Shown here: one piece after another, positions 7,338 through 56,993 of the stretch
Layout: each line of letters starts with the position of its first letter
Position numbering within the stretch: position 1 is the stretch's first letter
Virus record (IMG/VR): IMGVR_UViG_3300027804_002812
Location: 192,001 to 256,000 of that record
DNA: 64,000 nt
Origin: a virus
Lineage: Duplodnaviria > Caudoviricetes
Strand: one strand, 5' to 3'
Translations under genes and position numbers: made by a program
Notes under the pieces: model-generated
The model's database searches: none
What the model saw: the letters and a program-made list of their open reading frames with translations, nothing else
Told to the model about the DNA's origin: nothing

Positions 7338-7835
7338 TTATTCTCCTTTAATCATCGCCAATCCATGCTTCAAAAATTCCTTCGCTCTTTGTGAAACATT
7401 TGATAATGCATAAACCTTCTCGATGTCTTTTACAAGTTCTTCACCGTGTTCGTTCTCCTTATAAAGTTCAATAATTTTATCCATTGCCTTATTACATTCT
7501 TTTTTAGTCTCATCAAAGTAGTTGTAAGGTTTGAACTCTTTCAAATGATTCATAATGTTGTACGCTATGTGTTCCCCACCATCAGAAATATTTGGGTGGA
7601 TTCTCAAAGTCTTTAATAATTCGAGTCTATCAGTAAGACCTCCAACTCCATTCTTTCTAAGTTGGACCCCTTCAATGTAATCTTCAAGTTCATCAGACCC
7701 AACAATGTCTTCAAGAGTTTTTACATTTCCACCGTGGCAGAATTTTCTATCCTCTTTTTCTTCTGATTGTTCAATCATATATAATTTCTTGATTGACTCT
7801 TTTTCTTCTTCCGTAAGTACAAATCTTTTGCTCAT
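7338..7835 (-). CDS. Leader-tagged hypothetical protein
   Basis: Start MSKRFVLTEEEK; TATTTAT upstream. Confidence 0.75.
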   Translation of the reverse strand: MSKRFVLTEEEKESIKKLYMIEQSEEKEDRKFCHGGNVKTLEDIVGSDELEDYIEGVQLRKNGVGGLTDRLELLKTLRIHPNISDGGEHIAYNIMNHLKEFKPYNYFDETKKECNKAMDKIIELYKENEHGEELVKDIEKVYALSNVSQRAKEFLKHGLAMIKGE

Positions 7836-7890
7836 ACCGATAAATATATCAATCATTACAAATTGACAATCTATTTATTCTTAAAAACAT

Positions 7891-8538
7891 ATGAAAAGAT
7901 TTTTATATTCAATCACAATTGTTTTACTATCTCTATTATTTGTAAGTTCTGCACAAAATAAGAATGAAGTCGTACTAAAACACACAAACTACACATCAAC
8001 ATTTAGTATTTCCAAAAAATATCCTGTGGTGGTTGAATGGTGGGTAACAAAAGCAATGGTAAGTTGTCCGACACCACTAAAACGAAAAGATAATTTCAAA
8101 CCAGATCCATTATTACCACAACACACAGACATCGCAAAGGATTATGTCGGAAGTGGATACGATAGAGGTCATATGATGCCAGCGGCAGACAATCTATGTC
8201 AAACACAACAAATTCAAGATGAAAGTTTTTATTTTTCTAATATGGCGGCTCAGACACATAGACTAAATGCCGGAGATTGGAAATCATTAGAGACGTTCAC
8301 GAGAGATGAATCCAAATTAAAAGATTCAATTCACGTTTGGGCGGGAAATGTTGGTGAAATTAAGAAAATAGGAAGTGTGTCCGTTCCAAAATATTGTTGG
8401 AAAGTCATCCACATCAAAAAGGAAAATAAGTGGGTAGCGTACTTGTTTGAAAACAATACGTCAGCTCCTGATGGATTCAAAAACAACGAAGTTGCCCTTA
8501 AAGAAATTATGGCTTTAACGGGATTTACGTTTCGTTAG
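7891..8538 (+). CDS. DNA/RNA non-specific endonuclease (NucA/EndA beta-beta-alpha-Me family) with signal peptide
   Basis: GYDRGHMMPA active-site motif, NMAAQ, W..LE; hydrophobic N-terminus. Confidence 0.92.
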   Translation: MKRFLYSITIVLLSLLFVSSAQNKNEVVLKHTNYTSTFSISKKYPVVVEWWVTKAMVSCPTPLKRKDNFKPDPLLPQHTDIAKDYVGSGYDRGHMMPAADNLCQTQQIQDESFYFSNMAAQTHRLNAGDWKSLETFTRDESKLKDSIHVWAGNVGEIKKIGSVSVPKYCWKVIHIKKENKWVAYLFENNTSAPDGFKNNEVALKEIMALTGFTFR

Positions 8539-8546
8539 ACAACCAC

Positions 8547-8774
8547 TTACATTTCGTGAAACAAATACTTGTTGATATTATCCAAGGTATAAGTAGATTC
8601 TCGTTTATCGTAGACATGTTCCCATAAGGTTTTATTTTTGAGATATGGGTGAGGTTGAGACTTCGCCCATCTTTTTCCCATTTTATAATCTTTAACATTA
8701 TACGTTAATTTTTTTGTTGGTTGTTTAGCAAACCAACCTCTCACGGTCATTTTTAATTTGTGTAACATAAGCAT
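8547..8774 (-). CDS. Hypothetical protein
   Basis: 75-aa basic ORF. Confidence 0.65.
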   Translation of the reverse strand: MLMLHKLKMTVRGWFAKQPTKKLTYNVKDYKMGKRWAKSQPHPYLKNKTLWEHVYDKRESTYTLDNINKYLFHEM

Positions 8775-8809
8775 AAAAAAACCCCTAATATAAGGGGTCT
8801 AAATTTTGT

Positions 8810-9004
8810 TTATAGATATAATCTTTGTGTGTCCAAATAAAGTTGTTTCATTCGTGCTTCCAAAATAGTAATTTGTTTTTGGTCGGCTTCTGAAACATCA
8901 AAACTTTTGGCTTTAATCAGTCTAACTTGTTCCGCCATTTTTTCGTATCTGAATAACATGTCGTTGTAAAGTTTTGCTTTTTCGTCGTTTGTTAAGTAAC
9001 CCAT
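8810..9004 (-). CDS. Hypothetical coiled-coil protein
   Basis: 64 aa; TATTTAT upstream. Confidence 0.7.
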   Translation of the reverse strand: MGYLTNDEKAKLYNDMLFRYEKMAEQVRLIKAKSFDVSEADQKQITILEARMKQLYLDTQRLYL

Positions 9005-9070
9005 AGTGTCGTTTTTTATAAATATATTATGGGATTGATAATTGTAAATTAATTTAGTATTTTATAATTA

Positions 9071-11105: not shown

Positions 11106-11387
11106 TTACTTTTCGTATTTGATTTCTTCGTGGGCTTTCTTGATACCATCTAATCCTTTGTAGATTAAATCCTTAACTTCAGGACGAGTTTTCTTTCCTC
11201 CCTTGAACATGGATATCAACTCTTCCAAACTATCAATCACTTCTTCACTCGCATCGATTACATCCAAATTACCATTATCAGTATCTGTTTGCATAGGTTG
11301 TGTGTATATATCCAAATCCATGGCAACACTATTTGACCCTGTTTCAACTAATTTTTTATATTGATTTTCGCTAATAATGACTTTCAT
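11106..11387 (-). CDS. Leader-tagged hypothetical protein
   Basis: MKVIISENQYKKLVE leader. Confidence 0.75.
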   Translation of the reverse strand: MKVIISENQYKKLVETGSNSVAMDLDIYTQPMQTDTDNGNLDVIDASEEVIDSLEELISMFKGGKKTRPEVKDLIYKGLDGIKKAHEEIKYEK

Positions 11388-13093: not shown

Positions 13094-13795
13094 TTATTTG
13101 TTTCCATCTGTGGGAAATTTCTTATCGGCGTATTGCTGAAACGCTGCTTGGACTCCTCGTGTATTTGGTGCTGCTGGAGGAGCGAGTAAAGCATTTATTG
13201 TTTCAGGGCCAACAATACCATCTTTCTCTAATGATTCTCCCTTATCGTTTTTATTTTCTGATTGGAATTTTTCAACTTGTGTTTTAGTCATGCGACCGAA
13301 CATACTGTCAGGTTTACCGGACTTACTAACGTCTTTATATCCTTTACCAATCAATAATTCTTGTATTTTACCAACGACATCACCTTTCATTCCTATCGAA
13401 ACACTTTTACCATTTTTCAAATCCTCTATAGTTAAAGTTGTTTCTTTCCATGAAAAACCTGAACCTCCACCAGAAGTTCCTGATGAACCCGTAGATCCTC
13501 CAGAAGAACTTGAACCAGTAGATGATGTGTCATCAGAATATTGATCAATACCATTTTCCTCGAAAAAAGATCTACTAACTTCACCTTCTTTTTCTTCATA
13601 CCCTCGGAAAGTTGTTTCCGGGTCAGGCATATTTGCCCGTCTAAATGCTTGTGGTAAAGTAGGTAATTGTCTAGAACCTAGTCCAGTACTAGCAGTATTG
13701 AAACGGGTATTCCCTAGTTGTTGCTCAGAAATCAATTTTTTATGTAAATTGAGTATTCTATTTTTTTCGTCTTCGTGTACTATAAACTTTTTCAT
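13094..13795 (-). CDS. Leader-tagged protein with PG-binding domain
   Basis: MKKFIVHEDEK..LISE leader; S/G linker; GMKGDVVGKIQ...DSMFG..T...VEKFQ..DGIVGPET. Confidence 0.8.
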   Translation of the reverse strand: MKKFIVHEDEKNRILNLHKKLISEQQLGNTRFNTASTGLGSRQLPTLPQAFRRANMPDPETTFRGYEEKEGEVSRSFFEENGIDQYSDDTSSTGSSSSGGSTGSSGTSGGGSGFSWKETTLTIEDLKNGKSVSIGMKGDVVGKIQELLIGKGYKDVSKSGKPDSMFGRMTKTQVEKFQSENKNDKGESLEKDGIVGPETINALLAPPAAPNTRGVQAAFQQYADKKFPTDGNK

Positions 13796-14573: not shown

Positions 14574-16238
14574 TTAAATACTAGGAGGACCACCAGGAGG
14601 GCCTCCTGGTGCTGGTTGAGGATTTGGGGTTGTTATGTTTGGTTGTTGTGGGTTGATTCTAACGGAAGGTATTTGAGGTCGTTGTATATTAGGAATATTA
14701 TTTATCCTACGCATTTCACGATCGATTATTTCTTGATTTCTACGTTCGGTTTCATCTGCCCATCGTTTGAAACCTCCAGATTCAAACCAATCTAAACCGG
14801 TACCAATTTCATCCCAAAAAGTTGTAAATGGATTCAAAGCTTTCCAAATATTATATTGCTCCTCATCCAAACTATTTTTAGCTTGTTGGTCTATGTCTCT
14901 TTCCAATCCTAACGCAAATTCTTTGAACCTTTCAATAACAAATAGTTTGTATCTTTCCCAAAAACCTATACCTTGTTCATCAGTAGTTATCCCATGATAA
15001 AGTGAATCATATAACGCATACAATATTGGAACAATAGTACTTTTAATTACCTTCGATGTTGCAGCAAAATACAAAGATCCCAAAGCAACACCGTGTTTTC
15101 TAACATAACTGTTGAATATTTCGTTAATTTTGTAAATTGTACTTGTAGAAATAAACATTAATGTCCTTTGAATAAAATTACCCCACCAAATCATCCATGG
15201 AGACGGGTTAAATATTGTCTCATTTTTTCCTGGAAACCTTAACATTTTTCCGAGAGCCGACTCATCTGTCAAATATTTATAGTAACTCGGATAATCTTCA
15301 CTTAATTTATCATTTTTTTTCAATTTTTCTACGAAATCATAACCTCTTCCTCGTCCGAGCTTAGTTTCAACCGCATCTTGAATAACATTATAAATCTCAC
15401 TTTTGGTAAAATATTCGGTTTGCCTCAATGCTTCAATTTCAGCGTCTATTGCAGCAAATATTTGAGGTTTCGTTTCAAAAAATTTTTTATCACTGTCAAT
15501 TTGTTTAATTAGACCTATGATTTTTTCTAAAGACTTACTTTGCCCACCATCTATTCCGAGCCTCTTAATTTGAGTATTGTAGGCATTATTAAGTATGTAA
15601 TTTATTTTAGCTCTTAACCCACGAAACCATAGTTTATCTGTCAATAGGATTTTATCCTTGGCAGACAAACCTCTCGAAGTTATAATATCCCAATCTTCTA
15701 TTAGTTTACTAAGTTTACCCTCTGGTGTTGTATCATCAATTACTTTTACAGGTTTTGTAATTGCGTCTATTACGTCCTTTTTTATTATATCCTTAACTCC
15801 CTGAAATTCTGTATTTATACGGTTATCGACCAGTGATTCGATTGTTTTTTTCACTGAATCTAAGGTATGTTTTGGGTTTCCCTTCTCATCTTTTTCTTGT
15901 AAAAGTTTTTTTCCATGTGCAATTAAATCGTCAACAAATTGTAATACTTCAGCCTTTCTAGTTGACATGACTTTCGAGATAATAACATTTCTAAATGAAG
16001 GATTAACATCTGCCAACTTAGCAAGTGCTGCAATCGCCTCTTCATCATTTTTAGCATTTGCGAGGTCTCCGAATATCTTGGAGTATTTCATTTTAATATC
16101 AGGTAGATTATCTGCGGCTCTAAGAATTAAATCCGATAGCTCCTTAAAAACTAAAACACTTTCATTTATGAGGTAAACTTCCATCAAAACTTTAAGTCTA
16201 TCTAACTCCTCCTGAAGATTTTTTTTATTTTTTCTCAT
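14574..16238 (-). CDS. Large leader-tagged protein with hydrophobic segments
   Basis: NLQEELDRLKVLME..LINE leader; P/Q-rich tail. Confidence 0.8.
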   Translation of the reverse strand: MRKNKKNLQEELDRLKVLMEVYLINESVLVFKELSDLILRAADNLPDIKMKYSKIFGDLANAKNDEEAIAALAKLADVNPSFRNVIISKVMSTRKAEVLQFVDDLIAHGKKLLQEKDEKGNPKHTLDSVKKTIESLVDNRINTEFQGVKDIIKKDVIDAITKPVKVIDDTTPEGKLSKLIEDWDIITSRGLSAKDKILLTDKLWFRGLRAKINYILNNAYNTQIKRLGIDGGQSKSLEKIIGLIKQIDSDKKFFETKPQIFAAIDAEIEALRQTEYFTKSEIYNVIQDAVETKLGRGRGYDFVEKLKKNDKLSEDYPSYYKYLTDESALGKMLRFPGKNETIFNPSPWMIWWGNFIQRTLMFISTSTIYKINEIFNSYVRKHGVALGSLYFAATSKVIKSTIVPILYALYDSLYHGITTDEQGIGFWERYKLFVIERFKEFALGLERDIDQQAKNSLDEEQYNIWKALNPFTTFWDEIGTGLDWFESGGFKRWADETERRNQEIIDREMRRINNIPNIQRPQIPSVRINPQQPNITTPNPQPAPGGPPGGPPSI

Positions 16239-17481
16239 TTGATTTACTAATTATTTTCTTTAATGATTCTGAATCAACAACTCCAGTTTCTTTGAGTTTG
16301 TTTTGACTTTGAAATAGTAATACCGCATCGAATGTGTTATCTCCAAAATCTCCATCAATACTTTTTTTATTATCATCATATCCTTTCAAAGTATCTCCTA
16401 AATCTAAATTTTCTAACATCTCTTGGATTTTTCTGACTGATTCTCCCTTTTGCCCTTTTCTTATGACATAAGGTTCACCAGTGATGGGGTCTATTTGTTT
16501 TGATAAAACAATTTCAAATGAAGGAGATGTAGTTTTATTTTCATTTTGATTTATTAATTCTTCTTCTGACTTTGTGATATCTGATTTATATTCAGGATCA
16601 ATTTCTATTAACCTTTTTGGATCCTTTGATATTTGCTCGAAATTATAATTAAGGTACTCTTCAGCTTGTTTTTCTACGCTCTCCTGATTAGTAAGAACTT
16701 TAAGTAACCTAACTAATGTCTGAAATCCAGAATTAAAACGTAATTTCATTTTTTCTTTATCTGTTCCGTAAAGAGCTAAATATATTTCATCCCATGTATA
16801 ATATATTCCTGAAAGTAATGCGAAAGGCTTTCCGATTGCCCAACTTGTTTTAGATAATAATAACACTGTACCAAACAATTTTTTTCCTCCAGTTTTTATT
16901 ATATTTGATAATATTCTTGTAGTGTAATACTTTTGTGTAAGTTTTGCGATTTCATCAGCCTTTTCAGTAAGTGATTTTATCAAAGTATCGGCTTCTTTTA
17001 TAATGGCCTTTTCAGTGGTATCTAATACCTTTTTACCTGAAAGAGACTTTGCTTTTTTGAGCAAATCAATTGCATATTGTTTTCCTTTTTTAAGTACGCC
17101 TGTAGCCCCTGGTGCAATACGAATCCATTCTCCCAAAGGAATCAAACAAAAAGACAAAATTAATCCACCCATATACGGGTCATTTTCTTTGAAATATAGC
17201 GCAGCATCGGCGTGACACGCCACTAATGACGCTCCCAAAAGAAATGGCGCCGCAGGTGTCGGAAACATACCCAAAAGACCTGTGGTAATATCAACAAAAG
17301 TTAACCAATCATGTTCATTGAAACTTTTGAACCAATTAAAAGTTTTGAGGAGTCCACCCATACCCCCTATTGGTGTGAGTAAATTCCCAACACTTATTTG
17401 TTCATTGACCGCATAAACTCCCATCAAACTTTGAATTCGTTCGATTTCAATTTCATAAAGATATTTACCCTCTTGTACCAC
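16225..17481 (-). CDS. Leader-tagged protein: hydrophobic hairpin domain + C-terminal PG-binding domain
   Basis: YEIEIERIQSLMG..VNE; DITTGLLGMFP..APFLLGASL; RKGQKGESVRKIQ..DGDFGDNTFDAV..FQ. Confidence 0.8.
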   Translation of the reverse strand: MVQEGKYLYEIEIERIQSLMGVYAVNEQISVGNLLTPIGGMGGLLKTFNWFKSFNEHDWLTFVDITTGLLGMFPTPAAPFLLGASLVACHADAALYFKENDPYMGGLILSFCLIPLGEWIRIAPGATGVLKKGKQYAIDLLKKAKSLSGKKVLDTTEKAIIKEADTLIKSLTEKADEIAKLTQKYYTTRILSNIIKTGGKKLFGTVLLLSKTSWAIGKPFALLSGIYYTWDEIYLALYGTDKEKMKLRFNSGFQTLVRLLKVLTNQESVEKQAEEYLNYNFEQISKDPKRLIEIDPEYKSDITKSEEELINQNENKTTSPSFEIVLSKQIDPITGEPYVIRKGQKGESVRKIQEMLENLDLGDTLKGYDDNKKSIDGDFGDNTFDAVLLFQSQNKLKETGVVDSESLKKIISKSNEKK

Positions 17482-17814: not shown

Positions 17815-20073
17815 TTACTTCTTCAAATGATTGAACCTGAAGACAATATTCTCCTCTTCAGGTTTATCTGAGAATTTCGGTCCCAAATAATTTTGAAAAT
17901 TGTTTCTCAACTTTGTCTCGATTTGTTTTTCAACCTTTTCAGGAGTTACGTTTGGTATTTCACCTTTCAAATAATTTTCAGGTGTTGGAACTTGTTTTCC
18001 GTCTACCACTTTCAAAACGTCTTGAATGTCCACGTTCACGACGTTTTTGTCGTCAATATCTTCAACGGAAGAAATTTTGAATTTGATGCTAATTTTTGGT
18101 TCCATACCATAGGACGAAGATTTTGCGGTCGAAACTTTTTGGGAAATCAATGAAGGAGCAAGTTCTCTGAATGCCTTTCGTTTAAGTTCCATCACTTTCT
18201 CGTGAGTAGCCCCTCTCTCAATCATTTCCATTTCTTGACGAGACAATAGATAAACTTGAGAGTCCAAAGTATCATTCCATCTATATGGTTGAGAAGCATA
18301 CATTTGTTTTCCTGTGGACGATGAATATCTATCTGAGGTTTCATACCACTTTCCATCTTTGAAGATATAAACTGGATACCATCCATAAGACTCGACAATA
18401 TATATCTTTCCGTCCATTGTTGTTCTCCAATATCCCCTCAAGTTTGAACCTTCAAATGGAAGTTGAGCTTTGGTATAAACTTTGGCGTTATAATTCGGAG
18501 TACGTTTACCTTTCATCTTTCTTGGATCGATAAAGTTATCCTTTGTCAATGATGAATAATCACCATCTTCTCGATAATTCAAAAGATATAATTCCAAAAT
18601 ATATGAAGCATAATCTGCGTCAATCCCAAAATAAGGTAAATAATCCTTGATTGCGGTTTGTAAGTCTCTTTTGTTGTTATAATTACTTTTTTGGGTATTA
18701 AGAATTTTGAATAGTTTGACAATCACCTTATTTGGTTCAATATCGACCGCCTCATTCATCATGTTATCATCAACGCAAGCGGTTAGATAATATTCCATCA
18801 AATCATCACCATACCAACTCTGACACAGTGCAAAAATTCTGTCAATAAATTCTTCATAACTATTCTCAGTAAAATAATCTTCGTTAACCGCAAAAAAATG
18901 TTCAATCGCCATCGCAATAATGTTACCGGAATATTCGTATTCATCATCATAGTCTCCACAAAGATCCGGAAATTCCTCCTGTGTCTCAAGAATATATTTC
19001 ATGAAGGATTCCTTAGTAACCCTCCGTTTCAATCTATCCATTAAGGATGACTCAGATAATAATTCGTGCTGTGATTCAATTACTCTTTCAAGTTGTGATT
19101 CAGTAATAATATATTCTTTTTTTAATTTTTGTTCTGTTAAATTAGATGGGTCATTCCATCCTAACTTTGGATAATTCGAACTTAAATAAAGTTGATTCGG
19201 ACTTTCCAATCCAGCAAGTAATTCTTTTTCAATGTTATTAAAATCGGTATAAGCGATTCTTATTAATTTAATATTATTTTGACTTGTGTATTGATTTTTG
19301 ATTGTATCATAATTTACTCTTTCTTTGAATCTCGTTTCTCCTCCATGTTTCGCATTTGGCTTGAAATGTGGCTCTCCATCGTATTCAACTAAAATTTCTC
19401 TGTTTTCCTTATCCTTCAAATAAAAATCAAATTTCAATCGGGTACATCTATTCGATTCTTTTCCACTTTTACAATCTGAGAATTTTTTTTCTTTTTCGAA
19501 ATCTTTATAACCCTTTTCTATTAAAATATCGTTTAATTTTTTCGCGCCAATAGACCCTTCAGCTTTTCTACATATGGGGCATCCAGTTTTGCCTTGGCGA
19601 AGATTATCTATATTGACCCCATCTTTAGCAAAAACTCCATGGGTATTACCATTTTCGTCTTTTTTTGTACAAAATACATCTTTAACATATCTTCTTATAG
19701 TGTTTCCTCTTGTTTCACGATAAAATGTACTTTGGTCAAAGTTATAACCCCTATCTTTTGGAAAATTTTTTACGTACTCATCGAAGTCCACTCTTTTAGG
19801 TCCCATGCTTAGACGACGACATTCCCTACAACCACCCTCTCCTCTATATAAATAAGAGACTTTCAAATTATTACTGACACCATGTGGATTTCCATTTTCA
19901 TCTTTGATAGGACAATATAAGTTATTCAAATATCTCTGTCCTTTCATATTCGGGCTTAATTCCCCTTTATCAAAGTAATATTCAACATTAGAAAAATCCC
20001 ATTGAGGATATAACGCTTGGAGTTCGGCGGTTACTTGTTCATCGGGTTTCTTGGCTTCAAAAATTAATTTCAT
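17815..20073 (-). CDS. Fusion: Zn-finger repeats + Vsr/PD-(D/E)xK-like endonuclease + leader-tagged hypothetical domains
   Basis: Two C..DENGN.HGV...GC..C repeats; LKFDFYL..ILVEYDGEPHF..KLIRIAY; internal EYIITESQLERVIE; start MKLIFE follows TATTTAT. Confidence 0.75.
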   Translation of the reverse strand: MKLIFEAKKPDEQVTAELQALYPQWDFSNVEYYFDKGELSPNMKGQRYLNNLYCPIKDENGNPHGVSNNLKVSYLYRGEGGCRECRRLSMGPKRVDFDEYVKNFPKDRGYNFDQSTFYRETRGNTIRRYVKDVFCTKKDENGNTHGVFAKDGVNIDNLRQGKTGCPICRKAEGSIGAKKLNDILIEKGYKDFEKEKKFSDCKSGKESNRCTRLKFDFYLKDKENREILVEYDGEPHFKPNAKHGGETRFKERVNYDTIKNQYTSQNNIKLIRIAYTDFNNIEKELLAGLESPNQLYLSSNYPKLGWNDPSNLTEQKLKKEYIITESQLERVIESQHELLSESSLMDRLKRRVTKESFMKYILETQEEFPDLCGDYDDEYEYSGNIIAMAIEHFFAVNEDYFTENSYEEFIDRIFALCQSWYGDDLMEYYLTACVDDNMMNEAVDIEPNKVIVKLFKILNTQKSNYNNKRDLQTAIKDYLPYFGIDADYASYILELYLLNYREDGDYSSLTKDNFIDPRKMKGKRTPNYNAKVYTKAQLPFEGSNLRGYWRTTMDGKIYIVESYGWYPVYIFKDGKWYETSDRYSSSTGKQMYASQPYRWNDTLDSQVYLLSRQEMEMIERGATHEKVMELKRKAFRELAPSLISQKVSTAKSSSYGMEPKISIKFKISSVEDIDDKNVVNVDIQDVLKVVDGKQVPTPENYLKGEIPNVTPEKVEKQIETKLRNNFQNYLGPKFSDKPEEENIVFRFNHLKK

Positions 20074-20126
20074 ATTCATAAATACCCCAAAAAAACAAAA
20101 TCCCTTCAAAATTGTGGGATTATATA

Positions 20127-37610: not shown

Positions 37611-37611
37611 A

Positions 37612-38528: not shown

Positions 38529-38529
38529 A

Positions 38530-38865: not shown

Positions 38866-38887
38866 AACTTCTTCTTTGAATAGGGGG

Positions 38888-43351: not shown

Positions 43352-43834
43352 TCAATCTCTTGGAATTCTAATCTTCTCAACTCCACGATTTTCTTTCATA
43401 AATCTAATATAATCATCAAGCAAAGATTTTACCTCTTCAAGAACACCAGCGTCTTTGGCAACAGCGAATAGATTAAAATAACGATTATTATCGTTGTGAA
43501 TTTCCAAATAGTTATTGTAAAGATTGAAAGCAAATTTACCAGTTCCGAATTTCTCTCTAATTTCGGGATTTTTAATCATAATCATACTAACATCCGATTG
43601 TCTATCAATATATCCCTGAAAAGTAGATTCCCCCTTGTTGCCAGTCACACACCACTTGGTGTCAGATCCATATTTACAAGACGCTGTAAATGTCAATGGA
43701 ACAACTTGTAAAAAATTTTCTGTATCCGATATAACAATTCTTTCATCTTTGGAAATCTTATATTTTGTCTCATCAATCACTCGTCTAACCAATCTTGTTA
43801 AATCTGACTCGGTTAATCTTACAACTTTTTTCAT
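43352..43834 (-). CDS. Leader-tagged hypothetical protein
   Basis: MKKVVRLTESDLTRLVRRVIDE; ASCKYG..TKWCVT. Confidence 0.8.
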   Translation of the reverse strand: MKKVVRLTESDLTRLVRRVIDETKYKISKDERIVISDTENFLQVVPLTFTASCKYGSDTKWCVTGNKGESTFQGYIDRQSDVSMIMIKNPEIREKFGTGKFAFNLYNNYLEIHNDNNRYFNLFAVAKDAGVLEEVKSLLDDYIRFMKENRGVEKIRIPRD

Positions 43835-43852: not shown

Positions 43853-44398
43853 TTATTGTAAAAGTTCATCAAAATCGTCCCTCATATTTTTTTGTCTTTC
43901 GATTTCGTCCAAGAAAAATTCATAAATGTAGGCATCAACCTCACCCAAATCCAATCCTGCGCAATCTGGGAATGCATCAGAATTTACGAGTTCCTCCAAA
44001 TAATTGATAAATCTCTCTCGACAATCCTCAGTATTTTCAGGAGTTTCATTGTTGTTCCACACGTAAAGATCCCCACCTTCGTGGTTGACATAATTTCCAT
44101 TTTCATCAAATTCAACCTCGGATTGTTCAAACATGAACTCTATGTAAGATCTAAGACATTCAAGTTCATCATCCATAAAATCTTCCGAATCTCCTGTCAC
44201 CGGAACTTTAGTCATCTCAACATCAGGATTATCCAATATAAATTTTTCGTCATCAGTTAAAGATTCAATCCCCTGAGAACTAATCTTATCCAAGATAGCG
44301 TCAATCATATCTTGATTCTTCAATCTTTTTGCCTCAGTAATCATTTTCTTAACCAATGATACCAACTCAGACTCTGTTAACCTTAAAACCTTTTTCAT
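43853..44398 (-). CDS. Leader-tagged acidic protein with DUF6576-like motif
   Basis: MKKVLRLTESEL; IDAILDKISSQGIESLTDDEKFIL. Confidence 0.78.
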   Translation of the reverse strand: MKKVLRLTESELVSLVKKMITEAKRLKNQDMIDAILDKISSQGIESLTDDEKFILDNPDVEMTKVPVTGDSEDFMDDELECLRSYIEFMFEQSEVEFDENGNYVNHEGGDLYVWNNNETPENTEDCRERFINYLEELVNSDAFPDCAGLDLGEVDAYIYEFFLDEIERQKNMRDDFDELLQ

Positions 44399-44512: not shown

Positions 44513-44878
44513 TCATATTATGTAATTATTGACATCCCCTCCATTTTTTTCTATAGAGTTGATTACTTGATAATATTTCTCATCACTCCAATCATTTTGA
44601 CTATCTTGTACATATGGAATACAATCGGGTAAAGGATGTTTGATTGCTTCCAATCTCCACGGATTTAATTCAATTTGTTCGTCAGTTAAGTTTTCAAGTG
44701 TAATTACACTACAATCACCTTCCCAATTTGGTTCAGCAACTCCACCTTGGCCATCACCAGGTTTTGTAACAAATATAATATTGTTGTCAACAAGTTTTTG
44801 GATATCAAAAGTCATACGAGAATTATCCATTCCCATCATTATCTCGTGTATTCTTTTTATGTTCTCTTGTAAGTTCAT
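44513..44878 (-). CDS. Leader-tagged hypothetical protein
   Basis: MNLQENIKRIHEIMMG. Confidence 0.78.
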   Translation of the reverse strand: MNLQENIKRIHEIMMGMDNSRMTFDIQKLVDNNIIFVTKPGDGQGGVAEPNWEGDCSVITLENLTDEQIELNPWRLEAIKHPLPDCIPYVQDSQNDWSDEKYYQVINSIEKNGGDVNNYII

Positions 44879-44950: not shown

Positions 44951-45592
44951 TTAGGATGGATGGGCAACCCAGCTCTTTCCTTTTATTTCAGGAATCTTTC
45001 CTTGCTCATATAATTTCATCAAGGCAATAAGACGATTCCATCCTTCGTTCCATTTATACATGCCATCAACCATTTCAACAACAAAAGGTTCATTGTCAGT
45101 CAAGGTTTCAACACCATCTTTTAATGCCCTTCTCATCTGAACTTCAATACGTTCCTTACCACCTTCAACGGATTCTTTGTAAGGAATGAATTTCATTGTT
45201 TCAGGATGAATTTGGTCAGGGGTAACAGAAATTGTTTCCAAACTTATTTTGGAAAACTTATTTTTGTATCTGTCAACCCTCTCTTCCATTGTGACAAATT
45301 CATCAGGACCAACTTGCATATTTTTTGGATCCAAATCTATAAAATAATGACTAGGATTATCCTTATTTGGGGGAAGAAGAGGAAACATCATTTCTTTAAT
45401 TGCCTCCACAGGAAAATCACTTTCTCCCGCAATACAAGAAAATATTTTTGAAAGTTCGTCCCTACCATATTTCTTCCCTGGCTCATAGTCAGATGGATAA
45501 CAATCCGTTTCTTCTTCAGGTTGAATGTCCTCATCCTCTTTTAGAATCCCCATCAACTCTTTAAGTCGATATATGTTTTCGTTTAAGTTCAT
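44951..45592 (-). CDS. Leader-tagged protein with ParB/Srx-like motif
   Basis: MNLNENIYRLKELMGILKE; PFVVEMVDGMYKWNEGWNRLIAL. Confidence 0.7.
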   Translation of the reverse strand: MNLNENIYRLKELMGILKEDEDIQPEEETDCYPSDYEPGKKYGRDELSKIFSCIAGESDFPVEAIKEMMFPLLPPNKDNPSHYFIDLDPKNMQVGPDEFVTMEERVDRYKNKFSKISLETISVTPDQIHPETMKFIPYKESVEGGKERIEVQMRRALKDGVETLTDNEPFVVEMVDGMYKWNEGWNRLIALMKLYEQGKIPEIKGKSWVAHPS

Positions 45593-47617: not shown

Positions 47618-47905
47618 TTAGTTCAACTTCTTTATGTATTGACCAACACCTGTACTCATGAATCCATTTTTCCTCAACTTACTTTTAATCCTAAGACCTG
47701 TATCCTTATCAAACCCATTCCATCCAAAATAACTTGGACTTTCCACATCCACCACAACATAACCCCCAATATATTTTACAGTCACACATTCAGAGTCCAT
47801 ATACTGTTTCAAATCATCAAGAATATCAATATCTCGGACTTCTTTAATCACCCCTCGTATAATCTTAATCAATTCAGATTCCGTAAGTCTTACAATTTTT
47901 TTCAT
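47618..47905 (-). CDS. Leader-tagged hypothetical protein
   Basis: MKKIVRLTESELIKIIRGVIKE; TATTTAT upstream. Confidence 0.78.
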   Translation of the reverse strand: MKKIVRLTESELIKIIRGVIKEVRDIDILDDLKQYMDSECVTVKYIGGYVVVDVESPSYFGWNGFDKDTGLRIKSKLRKNGFMSTGVGQYIKKLN

Positions 47906-51702: not shown

Positions 51703-52014
51703 ATGAAGTATATTATATCTGAGCACAGATTCGAAAGATTTATAATAAAGTACTTAAACACTTTGGACTTTATTGATGATAACCATAGTGAAGATGGCTT
51801 TGATGTGATGTATAACGGTAGTGAAGCGATGGCTTACCGAAGTCGTCATAAAAAATTATACATTAGCACTGACTTAATTAAAGATATGAAATCCCTTTTT
51901 AATTTGAGTCAAAAAGAAGTCATGGACTATATAAGAACGTGGTTTCGTAATGAATATGATGTGGAAGTAAATACCTTATGGTTTTTATTTCCTGATGAAC
52001 CATTTACCTATTAA
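51703..52014 (+). CDS. ~100-aa paralog family member (leader-tagged)
   Basis: MKYIISEHRFE..FNL..WFRNEY.VEV; preceded by CCCCAACCCCCTTTTTT and TATTTAT. Confidence 0.8.
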   Translation: MKYIISEHRFERFIIKYLNTLDFIDDNHSEDGFDVMYNGSEAMAYRSRHKKLYISTDLIKDMKSLFNLSQKEVMDYIRTWFRNEYDVEVNTLWFLFPDEPFTY

Positions 52015-52350: not shown

Positions 52351-52635
52351 ATGAAATACATTATCTCCGAGAGTCGACTTGATAACATCATGAAAAAGTA
52401 TTTGGACTCTTTCTTATTGGGTAAGAATGTAGTCGATAATAAAAGGGTTATTGCAGTGTATAGTGATGAGGAGGATTATTTACAATATTTCCCGAGAAAA
52501 AAAGAACTATTTATATTGGATGAATTCTTGGATGAGTTCGAGGCTATGTTTGGTCTTACTCGAAAAGAATCAATTAGATTCATTATGGATTGGTTCGAAA
52601 ATGAATTTCATGTGAAAGTTCAGATGGCTGGATAA
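52351..52635 (+). CDS. ~100-aa paralog family member (leader-tagged)
   Basis: MKYIISESRLD..MFGL..WFENEF.VKV. Confidence 0.8.
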   Translation: MKYIISESRLDNIMKKYLDSFLLGKNVVDNKRVIAVYSDEEDYLQYFPRKKELFILDEFLDEFEAMFGLTRKESIRFIMDWFENEFHVKVQMAG

Positions 52636-52642: not shown

Positions 52643-52984
52643 CTACCCAACATATTTTTTGGCGCCACGTGTATATAAAGACACAAACTTCTCCAACAAT
52701 TCCTTATCACTATTGATTAAATTACGAAGTCCGTCTTCTAATTCTTCCATTTGTCGAACGTGGATATCAGCATAATCCGTAGGTATTACACTTATAATCC
52801 CCGAGTATATTGCTCTATCTAAGTATGTTTGAAAGTCAGGCATAAATGATGGCATGTACCAATCTGCCGCTAGAATAACTGCGTTGATAAGTTCGGGCAT
52901 TCTTCTCTTGAGATATGGATCTACGGAGCCTTCATTAATCCCCATCACTTCTTTAATTCTATCTATATCTTCTTGTAAGTTCAT
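52643..52984 (-). CDS. Leader-tagged single-domain paralog
   Basis: MNLQEDIDRIKEVMGINE + KRR...DF..YLDRAI domain. Confidence 0.8.
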   Translation of the reverse strand: MNLQEDIDRIKEVMGINEGSVDPYLKRRMPELINAVILAADWYMPSFMPDFQTYLDRAIYSGIISVIPTDYADIHVRQMEELEDGLRNLINSDKELLEKFVSLYTRGAKKYVG

Positions 52985-53325
52985 ATTAAATCGAGTTTGC
53001 TTATGTAAATTTGTTGAAGTTTTTGGAATAGTTCTCTGTCTCTATTGATTATTCTCCATAAAATAATTTCGAGTTCCTTTAATTCATCGTGAGTCAAATC
53101 ATAAGTTGCTATTACGTCTCTAATTGAACCAAATATTGCCCTGTCTACAAAATTCAGAAAATCGTGATCAGAATATTCTCTGTCACTCCTAACATATATT
53201 GCGTCAGCAATATCAACAATTGCCTCCACAAACGCAGGAATTCTTCTTCTTAAATATGGATTAAGAAAACCTTCAGTGATCCCCATCACCTCTTTGATCC
53301 TATCTATATCTTCTAATAAATTCAT
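52981..53325 (-). CDS. Leader-tagged single-domain paralog
   Basis: MNLLEDIDRIKEVMGITE + same domain. Confidence 0.8.
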   Translation of the reverse strand: MNLLEDIDRIKEVMGITEGFLNPYLRRRIPAFVEAIVDIADAIYVRSDREYSDHDFLNFVDRAIFGSIRDVIATYDLTHDELKELEIILWRIINRDRELFQKLQQIYISKLDLI

Positions 53326-53329: not shown

Positions 53330-54292
53330 CTATATGTTGGAGATATAGTGATCGTAAATCTCATCGTATATTGAATGTTTCTTTATTAACTCCAATATCA
53401 TCGGCTCTAACTCCTCACGAATCTTTAACTGTTCCTCGTATTCCCCTCCTATTTCATCGTGAACAAAATCTCTTGTTGCTGAGAATACAACCCTCTTTAG
53501 AAAATCATTAAAGTTATCGTATGCTCTTGGCGATAACCAATCATATGAAGCCTCAACATAATCAATTAAAGCATCCATTCTTCTTTTGACACGATTAATT
53601 TCTTTGGATTCATTCAATCCGTTCACTTTTTCAAAGGAAGTTTCATTAGGGTCACCCCAACCACCTTCTGAGAAAAAGTAATTATGAATCTCGTCATACA
53701 TTTCTTTATTGGTATTTATGTAGTTCAACATTTTTGGTTCGAAGTCATCCATCATCTTTGACATATCATCAAAATCTTCGGAATCAAAAAAATCCATGGC
53801 AATATGCCTAGTTGTGTCATGTACAACTCTCCTTAAAAAATGGTCAAAGTTGTCGAATCTACTAGCAGCTAAATCACTATATTGAGAACGTATGTCATTA
53901 TTTAACCTACCTAATCTTCTTTTGATAGGAAGTGCGTAATCGGATTCATCGATTCTTGAAGTAACCCTATAATTTATGTAATTACGTTTGATTCTTTTGA
54001 ATAACCTCTCATCATTACGTAATATTCTAAGAGCAATTGGAAGTAACTCATCTATTTCTTCACTGGTCACAAGAATATCATTATGACCGAAGAAACTGTC
54101 TATTGCATGCATCAAAATCTCCTCGACATATTCTTCAAAACTATCACTATCAGTTTCCTCTACATCAATCCACTCGAAAGAATTAATAATATCATCTATA
54201 AATTCCTCCTGTCTTCGTATAAAAAAAGTGTTGCGGTTTTCGTTAATACCCATCACTTCTTTAATCCGATTTATGTCTTCCTGTAGATTCAT
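53330..54292 (-). CDS. Leader-tagged protein with three copies of the same domain
   Basis: MNLQEDINRIKEVMGINE; copies preceded by INE, IDE, LNE. Confidence 0.82.
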   Translation of the reverse strand: MNLQEDINRIKEVMGINENRNTFFIRRQEEFIDDIINSFEWIDVEETDSDSFEEYVEEILMHAIDSFFGHNDILVTSEEIDELLPIALRILRNDERLFKRIKRNYINYRVTSRIDESDYALPIKRRLGRLNNDIRSQYSDLAASRFDNFDHFLRRVVHDTTRHIAMDFFDSEDFDDMSKMMDDFEPKMLNYINTNKEMYDEIHNYFFSEGGWGDPNETSFEKVNGLNESKEINRVKRRMDALIDYVEASYDWLSPRAYDNFNDFLKRVVFSATRDFVHDEIGGEYEEQLKIREELEPMILELIKKHSIYDEIYDHYISNI

Positions 54293-54690: not shown

Positions 54691-54939
54691 TTATTTTTTA
54701 TATAATTGTGTTAATCTTTCTAATTCTTGTTCATCCAATTCTTGTTCATCGTCTAAAAAAAATTCGATGTCATCAGTGTAAACCTTTTCATCGTCGTGGT
54801 GGTAAATGTCATCGCATCCACCATCAGCACATGAATCGATAAGATCACGTGCCTCGTCTTCATCTTCTGCTAATACACTATACGTCCAAGCGGTAACAAG
54901 TGTTCTTTCACCAATAAATGTAAATTTTTTCTTTGCCAT
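54691..54939 (-). CDS. Acidic hypothetical protein
   Basis: 82 aa. Confidence 0.72.
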   Translation of the reverse strand: MAKKKFTFIGERTLVTAWTYSVLAEDEDEARDLIDSCADGGCDDIYHHDDEKVYTDDIEFFLDDEQELDEQELERLTQLYKK

Positions 54940-54995
54940 AAATTTTTTATTTAACTTTAATAATTTATTTTGGGATTGTCAAATAGAGACAATAC

Positions 54996-55121
54996 CTATT
55001 TTCCCCTTAAGAAAAATAATACTATTGCTCCTATAATTAGGTATGTCATAAAGTTTGGAATATTGGTCATACCCCAAACAATGATGAATCCTACAATCAA
55101 AACATTAATAAGTCGTAACAT
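54996..55121 (-). CDS. Small two-TM protein (41 aa)
   Basis: Not in track. MLRLINVLIVGFIIVWGMTNIPNFMTYLIIGAIVLFFLRGK. Confidence 0.6.
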   Translation of the reverse strand: MLRLINVLIVGFIIVWGMTNIPNFMTYLIIGAIVLFFLRGK

Positions 55122-55185
55122 GAGTTATTTTTTTTAGGTGTGTACCAAATATAAAAAAAATATTTGAATAAAAAAACTTTTGTCC

Positions 55186-55869
55186 TTATATCAAATTAGA
55201 AGGTATAGTAAATTTCTTGTAAAGAATCTCCGCAAATCTTTTATGCCCCGCAAATGAAAAATGATAATCGAAAATACCACTATCTTGCCAAATAGTCTGC
55301 ATACTTAAAACAATAGGATCCTGTATTTGAAATGTAATGGTTTGACATTTCTTTTTATTTAACTCTTTGATAATAAAATTGAAACGCTTTTCCCACCTGT
55401 CTTTCCACAATGGACTTTCTGAAAAAAAATATTGATAGTCAATTATTGTATTCCAAAGTTTTTCCTCACTAATATGGTTTTTCAAAAAATTTCTTAAATT
55501 TTTCTCTCCTCTGTCTTCAAACATTGATATAATGCTAATCCATGATTGGTACATTGGTATATCCATTCTAGCCCAACTTGTCATACCAATTATGACCTTA
55601 TCATTTTCTTTTATTTGTTCGAAATTATCAAGGACCCAATCAAATATTTTGTCGTTGCTGGCCCCCGATTGAGATACATTTTTAATATCTTCGTTCAACC
55701 ATTCACCAAGCCATTCAATCCAAACCTTGTCTCCTTCTTTTTTGTGTTTGATATAATATTCATGTATTGGATAATCTGTGTGTCCGAATCCCCAACCTGG
55801 TCTACAGCCATGTCCCCATGTGAAACTATCTCCAAATCCCCATATCATGTTAAATAACTCCTTTGTCAA
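55186..55869 (-). CDS. SGNH-like paralog 11
   Basis: FGDSFTWG, NVSQSGASN, DYHFSFAGH. Confidence 0.78.
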   Translation of the reverse strand: MTKELFNMIWGFGDSFTWGHGCRPGWGFGHTDYPIHEYYIKHKKEGDKVWIEWLGEWLNEDIKNVSQSGASNDKIFDWVLDNFEQIKENDKVIIGMTSWARMDIPMYQSWISIISMFEDRGEKNLRNFLKNHISEEKLWNTIIDYQYFFSESPLWKDRWEKRFNFIIKELNKKKCQTITFQIQDPIVLSMQTIWQDSGIFDYHFSFAGHKRFAEILYKKFTIPSNLI

Positions 55870-56566
55870 CCATTTCCTCCATCACAGCAAGTTGTTCAGG
55901 ACTAGGAGGTTCTAACCATGAAATGGCTGTGTCAAAAACCCAATTCAATTCAGGTGTTAATAAATTTCTCTCTTTTAATATAGATTTTACGTATGACAAT
56001 CCTTGTTTCAATTTTTCAACTTGTTTTACTAAAACGTCAACACTCAAGGTTTTTGTCATTTTCAACAAGAGCAACCACCAAGAATAATTCCAACCTGTTT
56101 TGCCAAACAAAATTCGATATTTAATTATTCCTTTACTTATTGCCCACCTTTGAATTTCGTCTGGAGTTAATTTCAATACATTTTTAATCCCTTCCTTAAT
56201 TCCTGCGGATGCCACGTTTCCTCCAACTGGAACAAATCCCAGTGCTGCGGTCGCCAACCCTAAAAGAATAAACTCGGTCCTTTCGAGACCTGATGTCATG
56301 GCGGCTCTTGCAAAATAAGATATAGCATGAATTTCATCTATTGCAAATGACACTACATTACCCACACCTGGTACAACATCTATTGCCGCGGAAACGGTAT
56401 CAATCATAAAATCAGGGTTAATAGGGGTTTTTGAATCGATTGCTCCTTTGGATTGTCCGAAATTTTTAGGTGGTGCAGATTTTGGAGCAAGTGTTTTTCC
56501 TTTCAATTCAAGAGATGTTTGCTCCATAACCTCTTTGATTCTATGTATATCCTCTTGTAAGTTCAT
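55850..56566 (-). CDS. Leader-tagged protein with hydrophobic hairpin domain
   Basis: MNLQEDIHRIKEVME; DTVSAAIDVVPGVGNVVS..LGFVPVGG. Confidence 0.8.
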   Translation of the reverse strand: MNLQEDIHRIKEVMEQTSLELKGKTLAPKSAPPKNFGQSKGAIDSKTPINPDFMIDTVSAAIDVVPGVGNVVSFAIDEIHAISYFARAAMTSGLERTEFILLGLATAALGFVPVGGNVASAGIKEGIKNVLKLTPDEIQRWAISKGIIKYRILFGKTGWNYSWWLLLLKMTKTLSVDVLVKQVEKLKQGLSYVKSILKERNLLTPELNWVFDTAISWLEPPSPEQLAVMEEMVDKGVI

Positions 56567-56567
56567 C

Positions 56568-56993
56568 TTATTTCTTTTTCTTAACACAGTTCGGATATCT
56601 TTTACCAAACATGGTTTTCATTCCTTTTTGAGTATATCCTTTCCAACATCTTTCGGTAATTTCACCTTCAGATAGGTCTTCTGTGTCCTCACAATCACTA
56701 ACAAATCTTGATTGCAATAAAGGTGGAATTTCAAAATAATTATTAATGAGCAAATATATCTCATTCATGATATCTTGATGAAAATAGTGAGTAAGAATGT
56801 TGTCACCAGTTTTGAAAACAACTGAAACCCAATATCTTGGATATGTTTTCTCAATCCCATATCCCTTAACAACGATTTTACAAATGTCATCAGGATATTT
56901 GGATACAATAGTATTATCCAATAACCTTTGAATGTATTTGGTCAAATCTTTCTTTGTTTCTTCTTTTAATATTTTTCTGATAAGGTCTCTCAT
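56568..56993 (-). CDS. Leader-tagged protein with C-terminal CWKGY...PNCV motif
   Basis: MRDLIRKILKEE; LSEGEITE-RCWKGYTQKGMKTMFGKRYPNCVKK. Confidence 0.78.
   Translation of the reverse strand: MRDLIRKILKEETKKDLTKYIQRLLDNTIVSKYPDDICKIVVKGYGIEKTYPRYWVSVVFKTGDNILTHYFHQDIMNEIYLLINNYFEIPPLLQSRFVSDCEDTEDLSEGEITERCWKGYTQKGMKTMFGKRYPNCVKKKK

Follow-up and report, generated by a model that had tools for sequence, protein, structure and literature searches.

In phage T4, the sole element common to the diverse internal proteins is a capsid-targeting sequence (CTS) of 10 to 20 residues (PMC3012670, PMC9026906), which is removed from IPI, IPII, IPIII, and Alt by the prohead protease gp21 (PMC9026906, PMC3012670, PMC5694885). 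Among T-even phages, the internal proteins are variable and the CTS is constant (PMC9026906, PMC3012670, PMC5694885). In phiKZ, 201phi2-1, and SPN3US, inner-body or ejection propeptides are cut by gp175/gp245 (PMC5694885, PMC9026906), and more than one cut site within a propeptide is on record for T4, phiKZ, and SPN3US (PMC5694885).

Here, we analyzed a window of 64,000 nucleotides from the 326-kb genome of an uncultured phage from freshwater whose head is of the T4 type. An earlier note had proposed that 34 ORFs in it, most of them unrelated, begin with one of four leader types (A to D) that send late-made proteins into the head. In our reading, to which we assign a probability of about 0.55, the leaders are T4-CTS-like capsid-targeting propeptides of 18 to 25 residues, comprising at least three modular classes and a related A class. 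Like the T4 CTS, these leaders, known here from sequence alone, are N-terminal peptides with an L/I-x-E end on otherwise unrelated bodies, and they occur with a gp21-family S77 protease, a gp23/gp20-type head, and co-regulation with head genes. They differ in being longer (18 to 25 residues versus 10), in falling into at least three to four dissimilar classes within one genome that are exchanged between homologous bodies, in carrying two or three candidate cut sites each, in number (about 24 solid genes in the window versus a handful in T4), in a cargo heavy in peptidoglycan-binding and membrane-hairpin proteins, and in showing, by eye, no likeness to MKTYQEFIAE. This giant phage would be like phiKZ, 201phi2-1, and SPN3US in that a gp21-related protease processes many head-internal proteins after Glu, that each propeptide offers several sites, and that the cargo includes paralog families. 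Those phages belong to another lineage, however, and their propeptides mostly exceed 100 residues, use the motif S/A/G-x-E, and are not short tags common to unrelated proteins; here, the motif is I/L-x-E and the head is clearly of the T4 type. LXG or MIX effectors combine a constant N-terminal trafficking module with variable C-terminal domains; they resemble the present system in a conserved N-terminal address, exchangeable payloads, and rapid-turnover tandem arrays, but they use a secretion system rather than a virion route, the present tag is far shorter than their module, and the two are not homologous. A published description of this leader system was not found in the literature.

All 34 coordinates proved to be genuine ORFs, 32 on the minus strand, listed by their stop ends, and two, 51703 and 52351, on the plus strand, listed by their starts. 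Leader HMMs were searched against the 4,647 six-frame ORFs of the whole genome, and a wide E-value gap set members and noise apart. The type B HMM yielded 10 matches at E values of ≤3e-4, all beginning at Met, and the following match stood at 0.4 to 0.6; six matches were obtained for type C (E <1e-9), two for type D (E ~1e-18), and 10 for type A (E <1e-8), plus 11106 at 4e-5. A statistically clear leader was thereby assigned to 24 of the 34 ORFs (A, 11; B, 5; C, 6; D, 2), and the original count was inflated by 10 loose or unsupported cases (7338, 13094, 24079, 35409, 14574, 16225, 31996, 39280, 56568, and the N-terminus of 17815). Nor are more than 30 bodies unrelated: about 15 distinct bodies stand on the 24 solid genes, because eight type A genes (24365, 37275, 37612, 38166, 38530, 38888, 51703, and 52351; ~100 amino acids [aa]) and three type C genes (52643, 52981, and 53330) form two separate full-length paralog families in all-versus-all BLASTP. 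Members of types B and D, by the same comparison, share the leader only, being alike over no more than their first 22 to 25 residues.

The type B, C, and D genes are all on the minus strand. Five of type B lie in the window: 31371..31910 (179 aa; MKKIIRMTESDLTRLVKRVIRE followed by Q and a unique body; TATTTAT at 31930-31936), 40764..41168 (134 aa; TATTTAT at 41186-41192), 43352..43834 (160 aa; the second gene of an operon), 43853..44398 (181 aa; a DUF6576 match at residues 23 to 56; TATTTAT at 44403-44409), and 47618..47905 (95 aa from the ATG at 47905; TATTTAT at 47910-47916). Type C comprises 44513..44878 (121 aa; TATTTAT at 44897-44903), 44951..45592 (213 aa from the ATG at 45592; TATTTAT at 45597-45603), 55850..56566 (238 aa, with a Gly-rich hydrophobic hairpin), and the paralogs 52643..52984, 52981..53325, and 53330..54292 (320 aa, with two 52643-type domains in its body; TATTTAT at 54297-54303). 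The type D genes, 40050..40676 (208 aa; MNRSYSKIRHIQE through RLMSE, followed by Q; TATTTAT at 40692-40698) and 42591..43283 (230 aa; TATTTAT at 43299-43305), have only their first 23 aa in common.

Type A is dominated by a tandem array of five full-length paralogs of ~100 to 126 aa on the minus strand (37275..39205; members at 37275-37610, 37612-37992, 38166-38528, 38530-38865, and 38888-39205); members 2 and 3 are separated by a small ORF (38011-38169) that has no leader. The same family includes 24365..24709 (minus; TATTTAT at 24715-24721), 51703..52014 (plus; TATTTAT at 51692-51698), and 52351..52635 (plus). Other bodies are found in 36683..37273 (196 aa), 41904..42581 (a Gly-rich hydrophobic hairpin body related to 16225), and the type A-like 11106..11387 (93 aa; TATTTAT at 11407-11413), all on the minus strand.

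The loose cases described below are likewise on the minus strand. The 473-aa protein of 31996..33417 (TATTTAT at 33422-33428) combines PG_binding_1, peptidase M23, and a GH24 lysozyme domain and is a candidate virion-associated wall hydrolase; its N-terminus, MKKTLTEELVRMHSMMYG leading to IVE, is only loosely C-like and, as with 16225, the likeness is by eye only. The latter gene (16225..17481; EIERIQSLMGVYAVNE; GTG start) encodes hydrophobic hairpins and a C-terminal PG_binding_1 domain, and 14574..16238 (554 aa; NLQEELDRLKVLMEVYLINE) is a weak type C match (E 0.08). The leader of 13094..13795 (EDEKNRILNLHKKLISE followed by Q), which also has PG_binding_1, is of a different kind. Also loose are 39280..39909, an annexin-like repeat protein with the N-terminal motif EQEKNSIREQH, 7338..7835 (MSKRFVLTEEEKESIKKLY; TATTTAT at 7840-7846), and 35409..36641 (MRNFIVTEEQLNHLVEVI; type A HMM E 0.26). 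In 17815..20079, a 754-aa in-frame fusion, a homing endonuclease (aa ~69 to 287) is followed by an internal A-like leader (KKEYIITESQLERVIESQHELLSE, at ~19122-19048; E 6e-4) and a body. The tripeptide (I/L)-x-E had been said to recur at internal domain junctions; this was borne out in two fusions only, 17815 and an ortholog in a relative (L100:1204-1953).

The association with TATTTAT was upheld. This motif lies ≤45 nt upstream of 90 of 397 genes, and units headed by it hold all 24 strong leader genes (14 directly, 10 tightly linked downstream). Such units contain 31 of the 34 listed genes versus 142 of 363 other genes (Fisher p = 3e-9). TATTTAT precedes the fibre, baseplate, sheath, tube, portal, protease, and scaffold genes and was not found ahead of polymerase or RNR genes.

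Mapping with the HMMs recovered the families genome-wide and in IMG/VR relatives, where 6 to 11 type B genes occur per genome. Type B is represented there by 93 proteins in 79 body clusters, type C by 74 in 38, and type D by 45 in 32; of the 56 type A proteins outside this genome, 36 belong to one family. In types B, C, and D, conservation stops abruptly at an invariant Glu, with I, L, or M at P3 and P2 free. Type B has L/M/I-T-E at residues 7 to 9, and its conserved block stops at I/L-x-E (residues 20 to 22); E22 is present in 93 of 93 leaders, position 21 takes at least eight different residues, and the linker after E22 varies in length among orthologs. Type C ends in G-(I/L)-(I)-x-E and type D in (L/M)-x-E at residue 25. 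Type A has I-(T/S)-E at residues 5 to 7, and its conservation extends to about residue 20. By our own count, the consensus leaders hold eight [IL]xE motifs in 86 residues versus ~1.4 expected. In this AT-rich genome the motif is frequent (~1 per 70 residues), and its depletion from leader bodies is modest, with an observed/expected ratio of 0.88 (CI, 0.75 to 1.02) versus 1.18 (1.12 to 1.25) in other genes; no depletion was seen in the D, Q, and K controls or at the mirrored offset, and Glu at offset +3 was depleted too.

Three leader swaps on homologous bodies were identified. In the clearest, a type C leader ending in MMGVITE runs into GKDPKTGTGKKP and a type B leader ending in SRILKE runs into SDPKVGTGKKP; the bodies are 62% identical over 120 aa, and homology begins directly after the Glu, so the junction is exact. 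The other two swaps each involve a window gene: relatives carry an A-type leader on homologues of the 47618 (type B) and 55850 (type C) bodies. Types B, C, and D are true autonomous, swappable modules.

The head module lies at 135 to 151 kb of the genome, outside the window, and is of the T4 gp23/gp20/gp21 type, with a Gp23-family major capsid protein (MCP; E 4e-72) and a T4-type portal. A Glu-specific prohead protease, as the earlier note had anticipated, is predicted from a Peptidase_S77 gene (E 5e-22) that matches the T4 gp21 structure 5JBL and whose motifs ELNHP and SSRGxGS are conserved across the clade. In the MCP, L-I-N-E followed by A is the sole [IL]xE between the ENQ and VRR motifs and is invariant in 74 relatives. 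By our own comparison, the N-terminal part of this protein resembles that of T4 gp23, and the site lies at the equivalent of the T4 cut; the VRR block alone was aligned by a tool. The N-terminus of the S77 protease retains G-I-L-(I/V)-E, resembling LIE-9 at the N-terminus of the T4 protease (PMC9026906), and there is sequence-level evidence that it keeps a T4-like specificity. Leaders and the S77 protease occur together on 17 of 19 contigs; since the contigs with leaders all come from a single clade (MCP, 74 to 97% identical), this co-occurrence is not independent evidence. Among cultured phages, the B leader is absent from the relative Flavobacterium phage immuto, LR756508 gave a single weak leader match (E 0.03), and no cultured relative with leaders was found.

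For types B, C, and D, the computational predictions of the capsid-targeting reading held (the S77 protease, I-N-E followed by A in the MCP, TATTTAT, and swappable (I/L)-x-E modules). The tagged proteins would be made late from TATTTAT promoters alongside virion proteins, and the tag, an N-terminal strand and amphipathic helix, would dock them onto the scaffolding core of a T4-type prohead. The S77 protease would then cut after the (I/L)-x-E sites, two or three per tag, the final one marking the tag end, and the mature bodies would be retained in the head and exit together with the DNA when a cell is infected. Among the bodies are peptidoglycan-binding proteins, hydrophobic-hairpin proteins, an OmpA-like domain, and a wall hydrolase of three domains. 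From the cargo first listed, PG_binding_1, M23, GH24, and the annexin-like repeat were recovered; a ParB-like domain was not found, and the sole clear nuclease is the homing endonuclease fused upstream of the leader in 17815. Because there is a separate, tag-less endolysin candidate (1813-2640; PG_binding_1 plus GH19), the M23/GH24 hydrolase fits a virion-borne role.

The tags could instead be uncut docking or oligomerisation helices that tie diverse proteins to one partner, which might be a chaperone, a host target, or a site on the virion surface or tail. This is unlikely. The AlphaFold2 model of 38166 (pLDDT 87) has a helix at residues 7 to 21 (~95 for residues 11 to 20), and the type A leader helix may belong to the fold of the body; the leader reading for type A is weakened by this helix and by the predominance of one paralog family. 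The model of a type B ortholog was of low confidence (pLDDT 57). In type B, the invariant T8, E9, D11, and L12 are helix N-cap-like, and L-T-E at residues 7 to 9 may have a structural role and not be cut; moreover, leaders serve as internal linkers in the two fusion proteins, and a free N-terminus is perhaps unneeded. Docking helices, however, leave unexplained why the Glu at the end of three unrelated classes is invariant, always behind a free P2 and I/L/M at P3, why the clearest swap junction falls exactly at that Glu, and why [IL]xE is scarce in bodies, and a candidate partner gene travelling with the leader genes was not found. Alternatively, and with lower probability, the genes would be fast-diverging tandem paralogs in which the N-terminus alone is still recognisable and has no sorting role. 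The tandem arrays, the full-length paralogs of types A and C, the single family behind most external A proteins, and the likeness of the two D genes over the upstream 40 nt agree with such decay, but the bodies include unrelated known folds (PG_binding_1, M23 plus GH24, the annexin-like repeat, and OmpA-like), homologous bodies carry different leader classes, the conservation boundary is step-like rather than gradual, and 79 body clusters in 93 B proteins are excessive for simple decay.

It is improbable that the tags are handles for another machine, either a RiPP-like or radical-SAM modifying enzyme or a periplasmic export route, even though many bodies are envelope-acting. The three radical-SAM genes lie in glycan islands at 16 to 19 and 310 kb and lack a SPASM domain, no non-leader neighbour family recurs (the commonest is at 12 of 159 loci), and the tags are charged and amphipathic, without a hydrophobic core or twin-arginine motif. 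Least credible is a conserved unit of DNA or RNA, that is, a mobile promoter and 5′-end cassette kept for recombination or to control translation. Many leader genes have a terminator, TATTTAT, and the start codon closely packed at their upstream end, and the D pair has upstream sequence in common. Yet all synonymous codons are used at invariant residues (T8, ACA/ACT/ACC/ACG; S10, both codon families; R18, AGA/CGT/CGA/AGG), and selection therefore acts on the peptide.

Since T-even phages are known to have diverse internal proteins that share only the CTS, we view the putative capsid-targeting leader system as an enlarged and diversified form of a known principle, not a new one. If this reading is true, the tags would be addresses by which proteins are loaded into the capsid and later injected.

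The earlier note had proposed that more than 30 unrelated ORFs of the window share a few N-terminal leaders (types A to D), the remainder of each protein being referred to as the body. All ORFs on its 34-entry list exist, although by HMM and BLASTP the claim narrows to 24 solid leader genes with only about 15 distinct bodies. The genome-wide mapping proposed there, relatives included, was carried out: when all 4,647 six-frame ORFs were searched with leader HMMs, strong members separated cleanly from noise, and the leaders recur in IMG/VR. Type B heads 10 genes in the genome, 5 of which lie inside the window; all ten start at Met, with E values of 3e-4 or lower and the next match at E 0.4 to 0.6. 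The HMMs assigned two genes to type D, six strong genes and a weak one to type C, and ten strong genes plus 11106 to type A (bare gene numbers are window ORF coordinates), while 10 of the 34 listed ORFs are loose. Unsupervised clustering of all N-termini recovered the same four classes together with a small fifth, with a motif like EE(K/R)NRILxLH. This loose motif, (S/T/D)-E-E-(K/R)-N-x-I-L-x-L-H, is found at window 13094-13795, 7338-7835, and 39280-39909 and, in full-record coordinates, at genome 135472-136650 and 178044-179519; the carrier at genome 135472 has an OmpA-like domain, and its gene lies immediately downstream of that for the capsid protein. In all-versus-all BLASTP, the similarity among B and among D members was confined to the first 22 to 25 residues. 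Eight type A genes and three type C genes are full-length paralogs, and the other A and C genes as well as B and D are devoid of whole-length similarity.

IMG/VR was then scanned with an alignment of each leader class. Type B was present at more than 447 loci, and its 93 non-redundant proteins fell into 79 body clusters; 74 type C proteins yielded 38 clusters, and 45 type D proteins yielded 32. For type A, 56 proteins gave just 13 clusters, 36 of the proteins belonging to a single family of ~100 aa. A short N-terminal peptide on otherwise unrelated proteins is thus the rule for B, C, and D and holds partly for A, in which one cluster dominates. The B leader is invariant at T8, E9, L12, and E22 (E22 in 93/93), positions 1 to 9 being constrained by the search pattern and 10 to 22 unconstrained; position 20 is I or L in 88 of the 93, position 21 takes at least 8 residue types, and conservation is nil from position 24 on. 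The C leader, which exists in two lengths, closes with G-(I/L/V)-(I)-x-E, and the D leader closes with (L/M/I)23-x-E25, after which comes Q or K. The A leader carries I-T/S-E at positions 5 to 7, yet its conservation runs further. One B-leader protein outside the window (genome 133153-133620; 6153-6617 of the stretch L346) is conserved in the clade and adjoins structural genes, and its orthologs retain E9, V19, and E22, with a linker of variable length preceding the conserved body. This protein has a Cys-rich C-terminus (KVYPSAYANGYAVQVCKG...C..YC), and its ortholog in one relative (1204-1953 of the stretch L100) is fused behind a 97-aa domain, which renders the leader internal, with V-N-E just before it.

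Homologous bodies were found behind different leader classes, both in relatives and for window genes. In the clearest swap, two relatives' proteins (MNLQENINRIKEMMGVITE followed by GKDPKTGTGKKP versus MGKIVRLTESDLAKIISRILKE followed by SDPKVGTGKKP) share 62% identity over 120 residues, starting directly after Glu. The body of window gene 47618, which has a B leader, stands behind an A leader in a relative, and that of 55850, which has a C leader, is likewise found behind an A leader. Since homologous bodies carry different leaders, the leader classes are, as judged by these alignments, functionally exchangeable, and the swap point in the clearest case is (I/L)-x-E.

In T4, the prohead protease gp21 cleaves after L/I-x-E, internal proteins carry propeptides of 10 to 20 residues that are capsid targeting sequences (CTS), and several cleavage sites per propeptide are usual (PMC9026906, PMC5694885, PMC3012670). 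The source record (326,291 bp, with the window at bases 192,001-256,000; 34% G+C, "complete" by CheckV) contains a T4-type head module at genome 135-151 kb, outside the window, comprising a major capsid protein (MCP; Gp23 family, PF07068, E 4e-72), T4-type portal, large terminase, an acidic 523-aa scaffold candidate (genome 138501-140072), and prohead protease (genome 140410-141126; Peptidase_S77, PF03420, E 5e-22; phrog_207; match to the T4 gp21 structure 5JBL, E 5e-13). The Gp23 and Portal_T4 genes adjoin that of the S77 protease, whose ELNHP and SSRGxGS motifs are conserved in 16 relatives. Its N-terminus retains G-I-L-(I/V)-E in 16 relatives, a predicted site like T4's LIE-9. The HMMER alignment of the MCP with T4 gp23 begins at the VRR block, and by our own comparison the N-terminal part of the MCP also resembles that of gp23 (NKW...LEG, ENQ). 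The sole [IL]xE between the ENQ and VRR motifs, L-I-N-E followed by A, stands at the position equivalent to that in T4, is invariant in 74 relatives, and is a predicted site.

The consensus leaders hold 8 [IL]xE in 86 residues versus ~1.4 expected, by our own count. In the leader-bearing bodies, counted as one per cluster (n = 145), the observed/expected ratio of [IL]xE was 0.88 (bootstrap CI 0.75-1.02) versus 1.18 (1.12-1.25) in the other genes of the genome, and the controls [IL]xD, [IL]xQ, [IL]xK, and Ex[IL] were at background; because Glu at offset +3 is likewise low in the bodies (0.83), this depletion is regarded as suggestive only. Two likenesses to the B leader in the head module were discarded: that of the protease N-terminus (MKNLRILE) is not kept in relatives, and a stretch in a 304-aa protein (KLTESQINILHSRLISE), spotted by eye, was without HMM support. 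A 402-aa head-module protein outside the window (genome 148849-150057; 13849-15057 of the stretch L003) has no assigned function, and its look-up in the ESM Atlas gave unnamed viral clusters only. Its N-terminus, GSEKLQGMDKIRRIMEIARYNE in all four orthologs whose N-termini were read, resembles the type C leader (ENIQRIKEMMGLNE), a weak link (blastp-short E < 0.05) that could point to the origin or docking partner of the C leader.

The phage belongs to a widespread clade. At least 597 same-clade capsid loci are present in IMG/VR, the best 80 of which are full-length matches at 80 to 96% identity, with one partial match at 100%, and window DNA was detected in freshwater metagenomes from 19 studies. 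The closest named relatives by MCP are only 35 to 45% identical (an uncultured 484-kb phage, Flavobacterium phage immuto, a Microcystis phage, and Rhodothermus phage RM378). Neither MegaBLAST with 20 kb of the window nor tBLASTn with a 25-aa B leader matched anything in a set of 50,697 phage records; when the records nearest by MCP were searched with the B profile, no B leader turned up in the immuto phage and only a single weak match in LR756508 (E 0.03). A database-wide search with a 95-aa B protein returned orthologs only, all named hypothetical, the leader alone being too short for significance at such scale, and no paper describing the leaders turned up when full texts were searched for their strings. 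The expected co-occurrence of leaders and S77 protease was observed in 17 of 19 contigs, but it does not constitute independent evidence, because all leader-bearing contigs belong to one clade (MCP 74 to 97% identical).

Most bodies remained unnamed by Pfam and PHROGs. A PG_binding_1 domain recurs in 13094, 16225, 31996, genome 175238, and two relatives; 31996 is a three-domain hydrolase (PG_binding_1, M23, and GH24), 39280 has an annexin-like repeat, and 16225, 41904, and 55850 have Gly-rich hydrophobic hairpins. The cargo named in the earlier note was recovered only in part: no ParB-like domain was found by Pfam or PHROGs, and a homing endonuclease in 17815-20079 (−) (phrog_559, E 5e-27, aa ~69-287) is the sole clear nuclease. 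This endonuclease is joined in frame, with no stop or start between, upstream of an internal A-like leader without Met (KKEYIITESQ...), an arrangement that suggests insertion of a mobile endonuclease gene immediately ahead of a leader gene. A leaderless protein with PG_binding_1 and GH19, encoded at window 1813-2640 (+) behind TATTTAT, is likely the endolysin. The protein of 56568-56993 (−) ends in a basic Cys-containing module, E-R-C-W-K-G-Y-T-Q-K-G-M-K-T-M-F-G-K-R-Y-P-N-C-V, which likewise closes many small proteins of relatives that otherwise differ from one another (~36 of 159 related loci), ~60% of them also with an N-terminal leader. Scattered among the leader genes and glycan islands is a 12-member paralog family (window 10306-11073, 26971-27675, 28315-28959, 29581-30384, 34741-35376, and 55186-55848, plus six genes elsewhere in the genome) with an N-terminal G-D-S-(F/W)-(S/T) typical of SGNH/GDSL hydrolases.

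Of 397 genes, 90 have the motif TATTTAT no more than 45 nt upstream (89 if a 60-nt span is taken and start codons are left unadjusted). It precedes fibre, baseplate, sheath, tube, portal, protease, and scaffold genes, and a whole-genome scan found it absent before the polymerase and ribonucleotide reductase genes. All 24 strong leader genes lie in TATTTAT units, as do 31 of the 34 listed genes versus 142 of 363 others (p 3e-9). From the association of TATTTAT with structural genes, and from this only, we infer late expression of the leader genes. The spacing to the start codon is bimodal, 4 to 6 nt or 15 to 19 nt, with one mode exemplified at 24715-24721, 33422-33428, 44403-44409, and 54297-54303 and the other at 31930-31936, 41186-41192, and 43299-43305. 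A 5′ untranslated region would not fit into the short spacing, so leaderless mRNAs may be common among late messages; a Shine-Dalgarno sequence was not visible. Short, error-free contigs from four freshwater RNA libraries fall on several leader genes and prove neither timing nor, strictly, transcription. At window 41117-41163, 43246-43289, and 40617-40684, they match the leader-coding stretch only and then continue into unrelated sequence, and they are probably derived from different leader genes carried by related phages in those samples.

Taken together, we favor, at a probability of roughly 0.55, the reading that types B, C, and D, and probably residues 1 to 7 of A as well, are capsid-targeting propeptides like the T4 CTS, with packaging and cleavage predicted. 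The principle is already known from T4; in contrast to the T4 CTS, the tags here are longer, fall into several exchangeable classes, and head a bigger repertoire of envelope-directed cargo. No likeness to the T4 CTS MKTYQEFIAE is seen by eye except the M-K start and the I-x-E end. Separation of the leader from a shared fold stood only in part for type A: in an AF2 model of 38166 (pLDDT 87, pTM 0.81), residues 1 to 6 are coil and 7 to 21 a high-confidence helix, so this helix may be integral to a fold, a concern that does not extend to MKYIITE itself. Foldseek with the type A model found nothing below E 0.03 in the PDB. The model of a B ortholog (helix 9-22, coil 23-28) was poor (pLDDT 57) and too weak to judge packing.

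Two rivals of this reading explain part of the data. A docking helix that is retained in the mature protein would account for the helix-cap conservation and the internal leader copies, but it leaves the common Glu-ended boundary unexplained; plain decay of paralogs, which accounts for part of A and C, fails on the leader swaps, the step-like boundary, and the unrelated known folds. The conserved unit is not a DNA cassette, since the invariant leader residues are encoded by all synonymous codons, placing the constraint on the peptide rather than on DNA or RNA. A RiPP-like tag for a radical-SAM/SPASM modifying enzyme also fails as an explanation, no dedicated enzyme of this kind being seen beside the tagged genes: Radical_SAM matches are confined to the glycan islands (genome 16-19 kb and 310 kb), the SPASM domain is absent from the genome, and no neighbor family recurs beside leader genes. 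Sec, Tat, and lipoprotein signal peptides were rejected by inspection, for the leaders are charged and amphipathic, with no hydrophobic core, twin-arginine motif, or lipobox; they also look unlike the genuine signal peptides found in other parts of this genome, which suggest a host in the Bacteroidota.

If the tags are capsid-loading signals, they would allow the injected proteome of widespread freshwater jumbo phages, a group without a cultured member, to be listed by a rule based on sequence. The list would consist of wall-binding, wall-degrading, and membrane-active proteins and ~150 body families of unknown function, the latter being candidate early host-takeover or anti-defence effectors. 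More speculatively, and we consider this unlikely, the leader classes could be non-redundant and form a sorting code that sets where a cargo protein docks, in how many copies it is present, or when it is ejected, within a very large T4-type head, such that one abundant freshwater jumbo-phage clade loads at least 25 proteins per virion, from hundreds of unrelated effector families readable off metagenomes by their tags alone. If the capsid-loading reading is true, longer natural tags would be at hand for putting foreign proteins into large phage heads, and the T4 CTS principle would scale up and diversify into multiple exchangeable leader classes.
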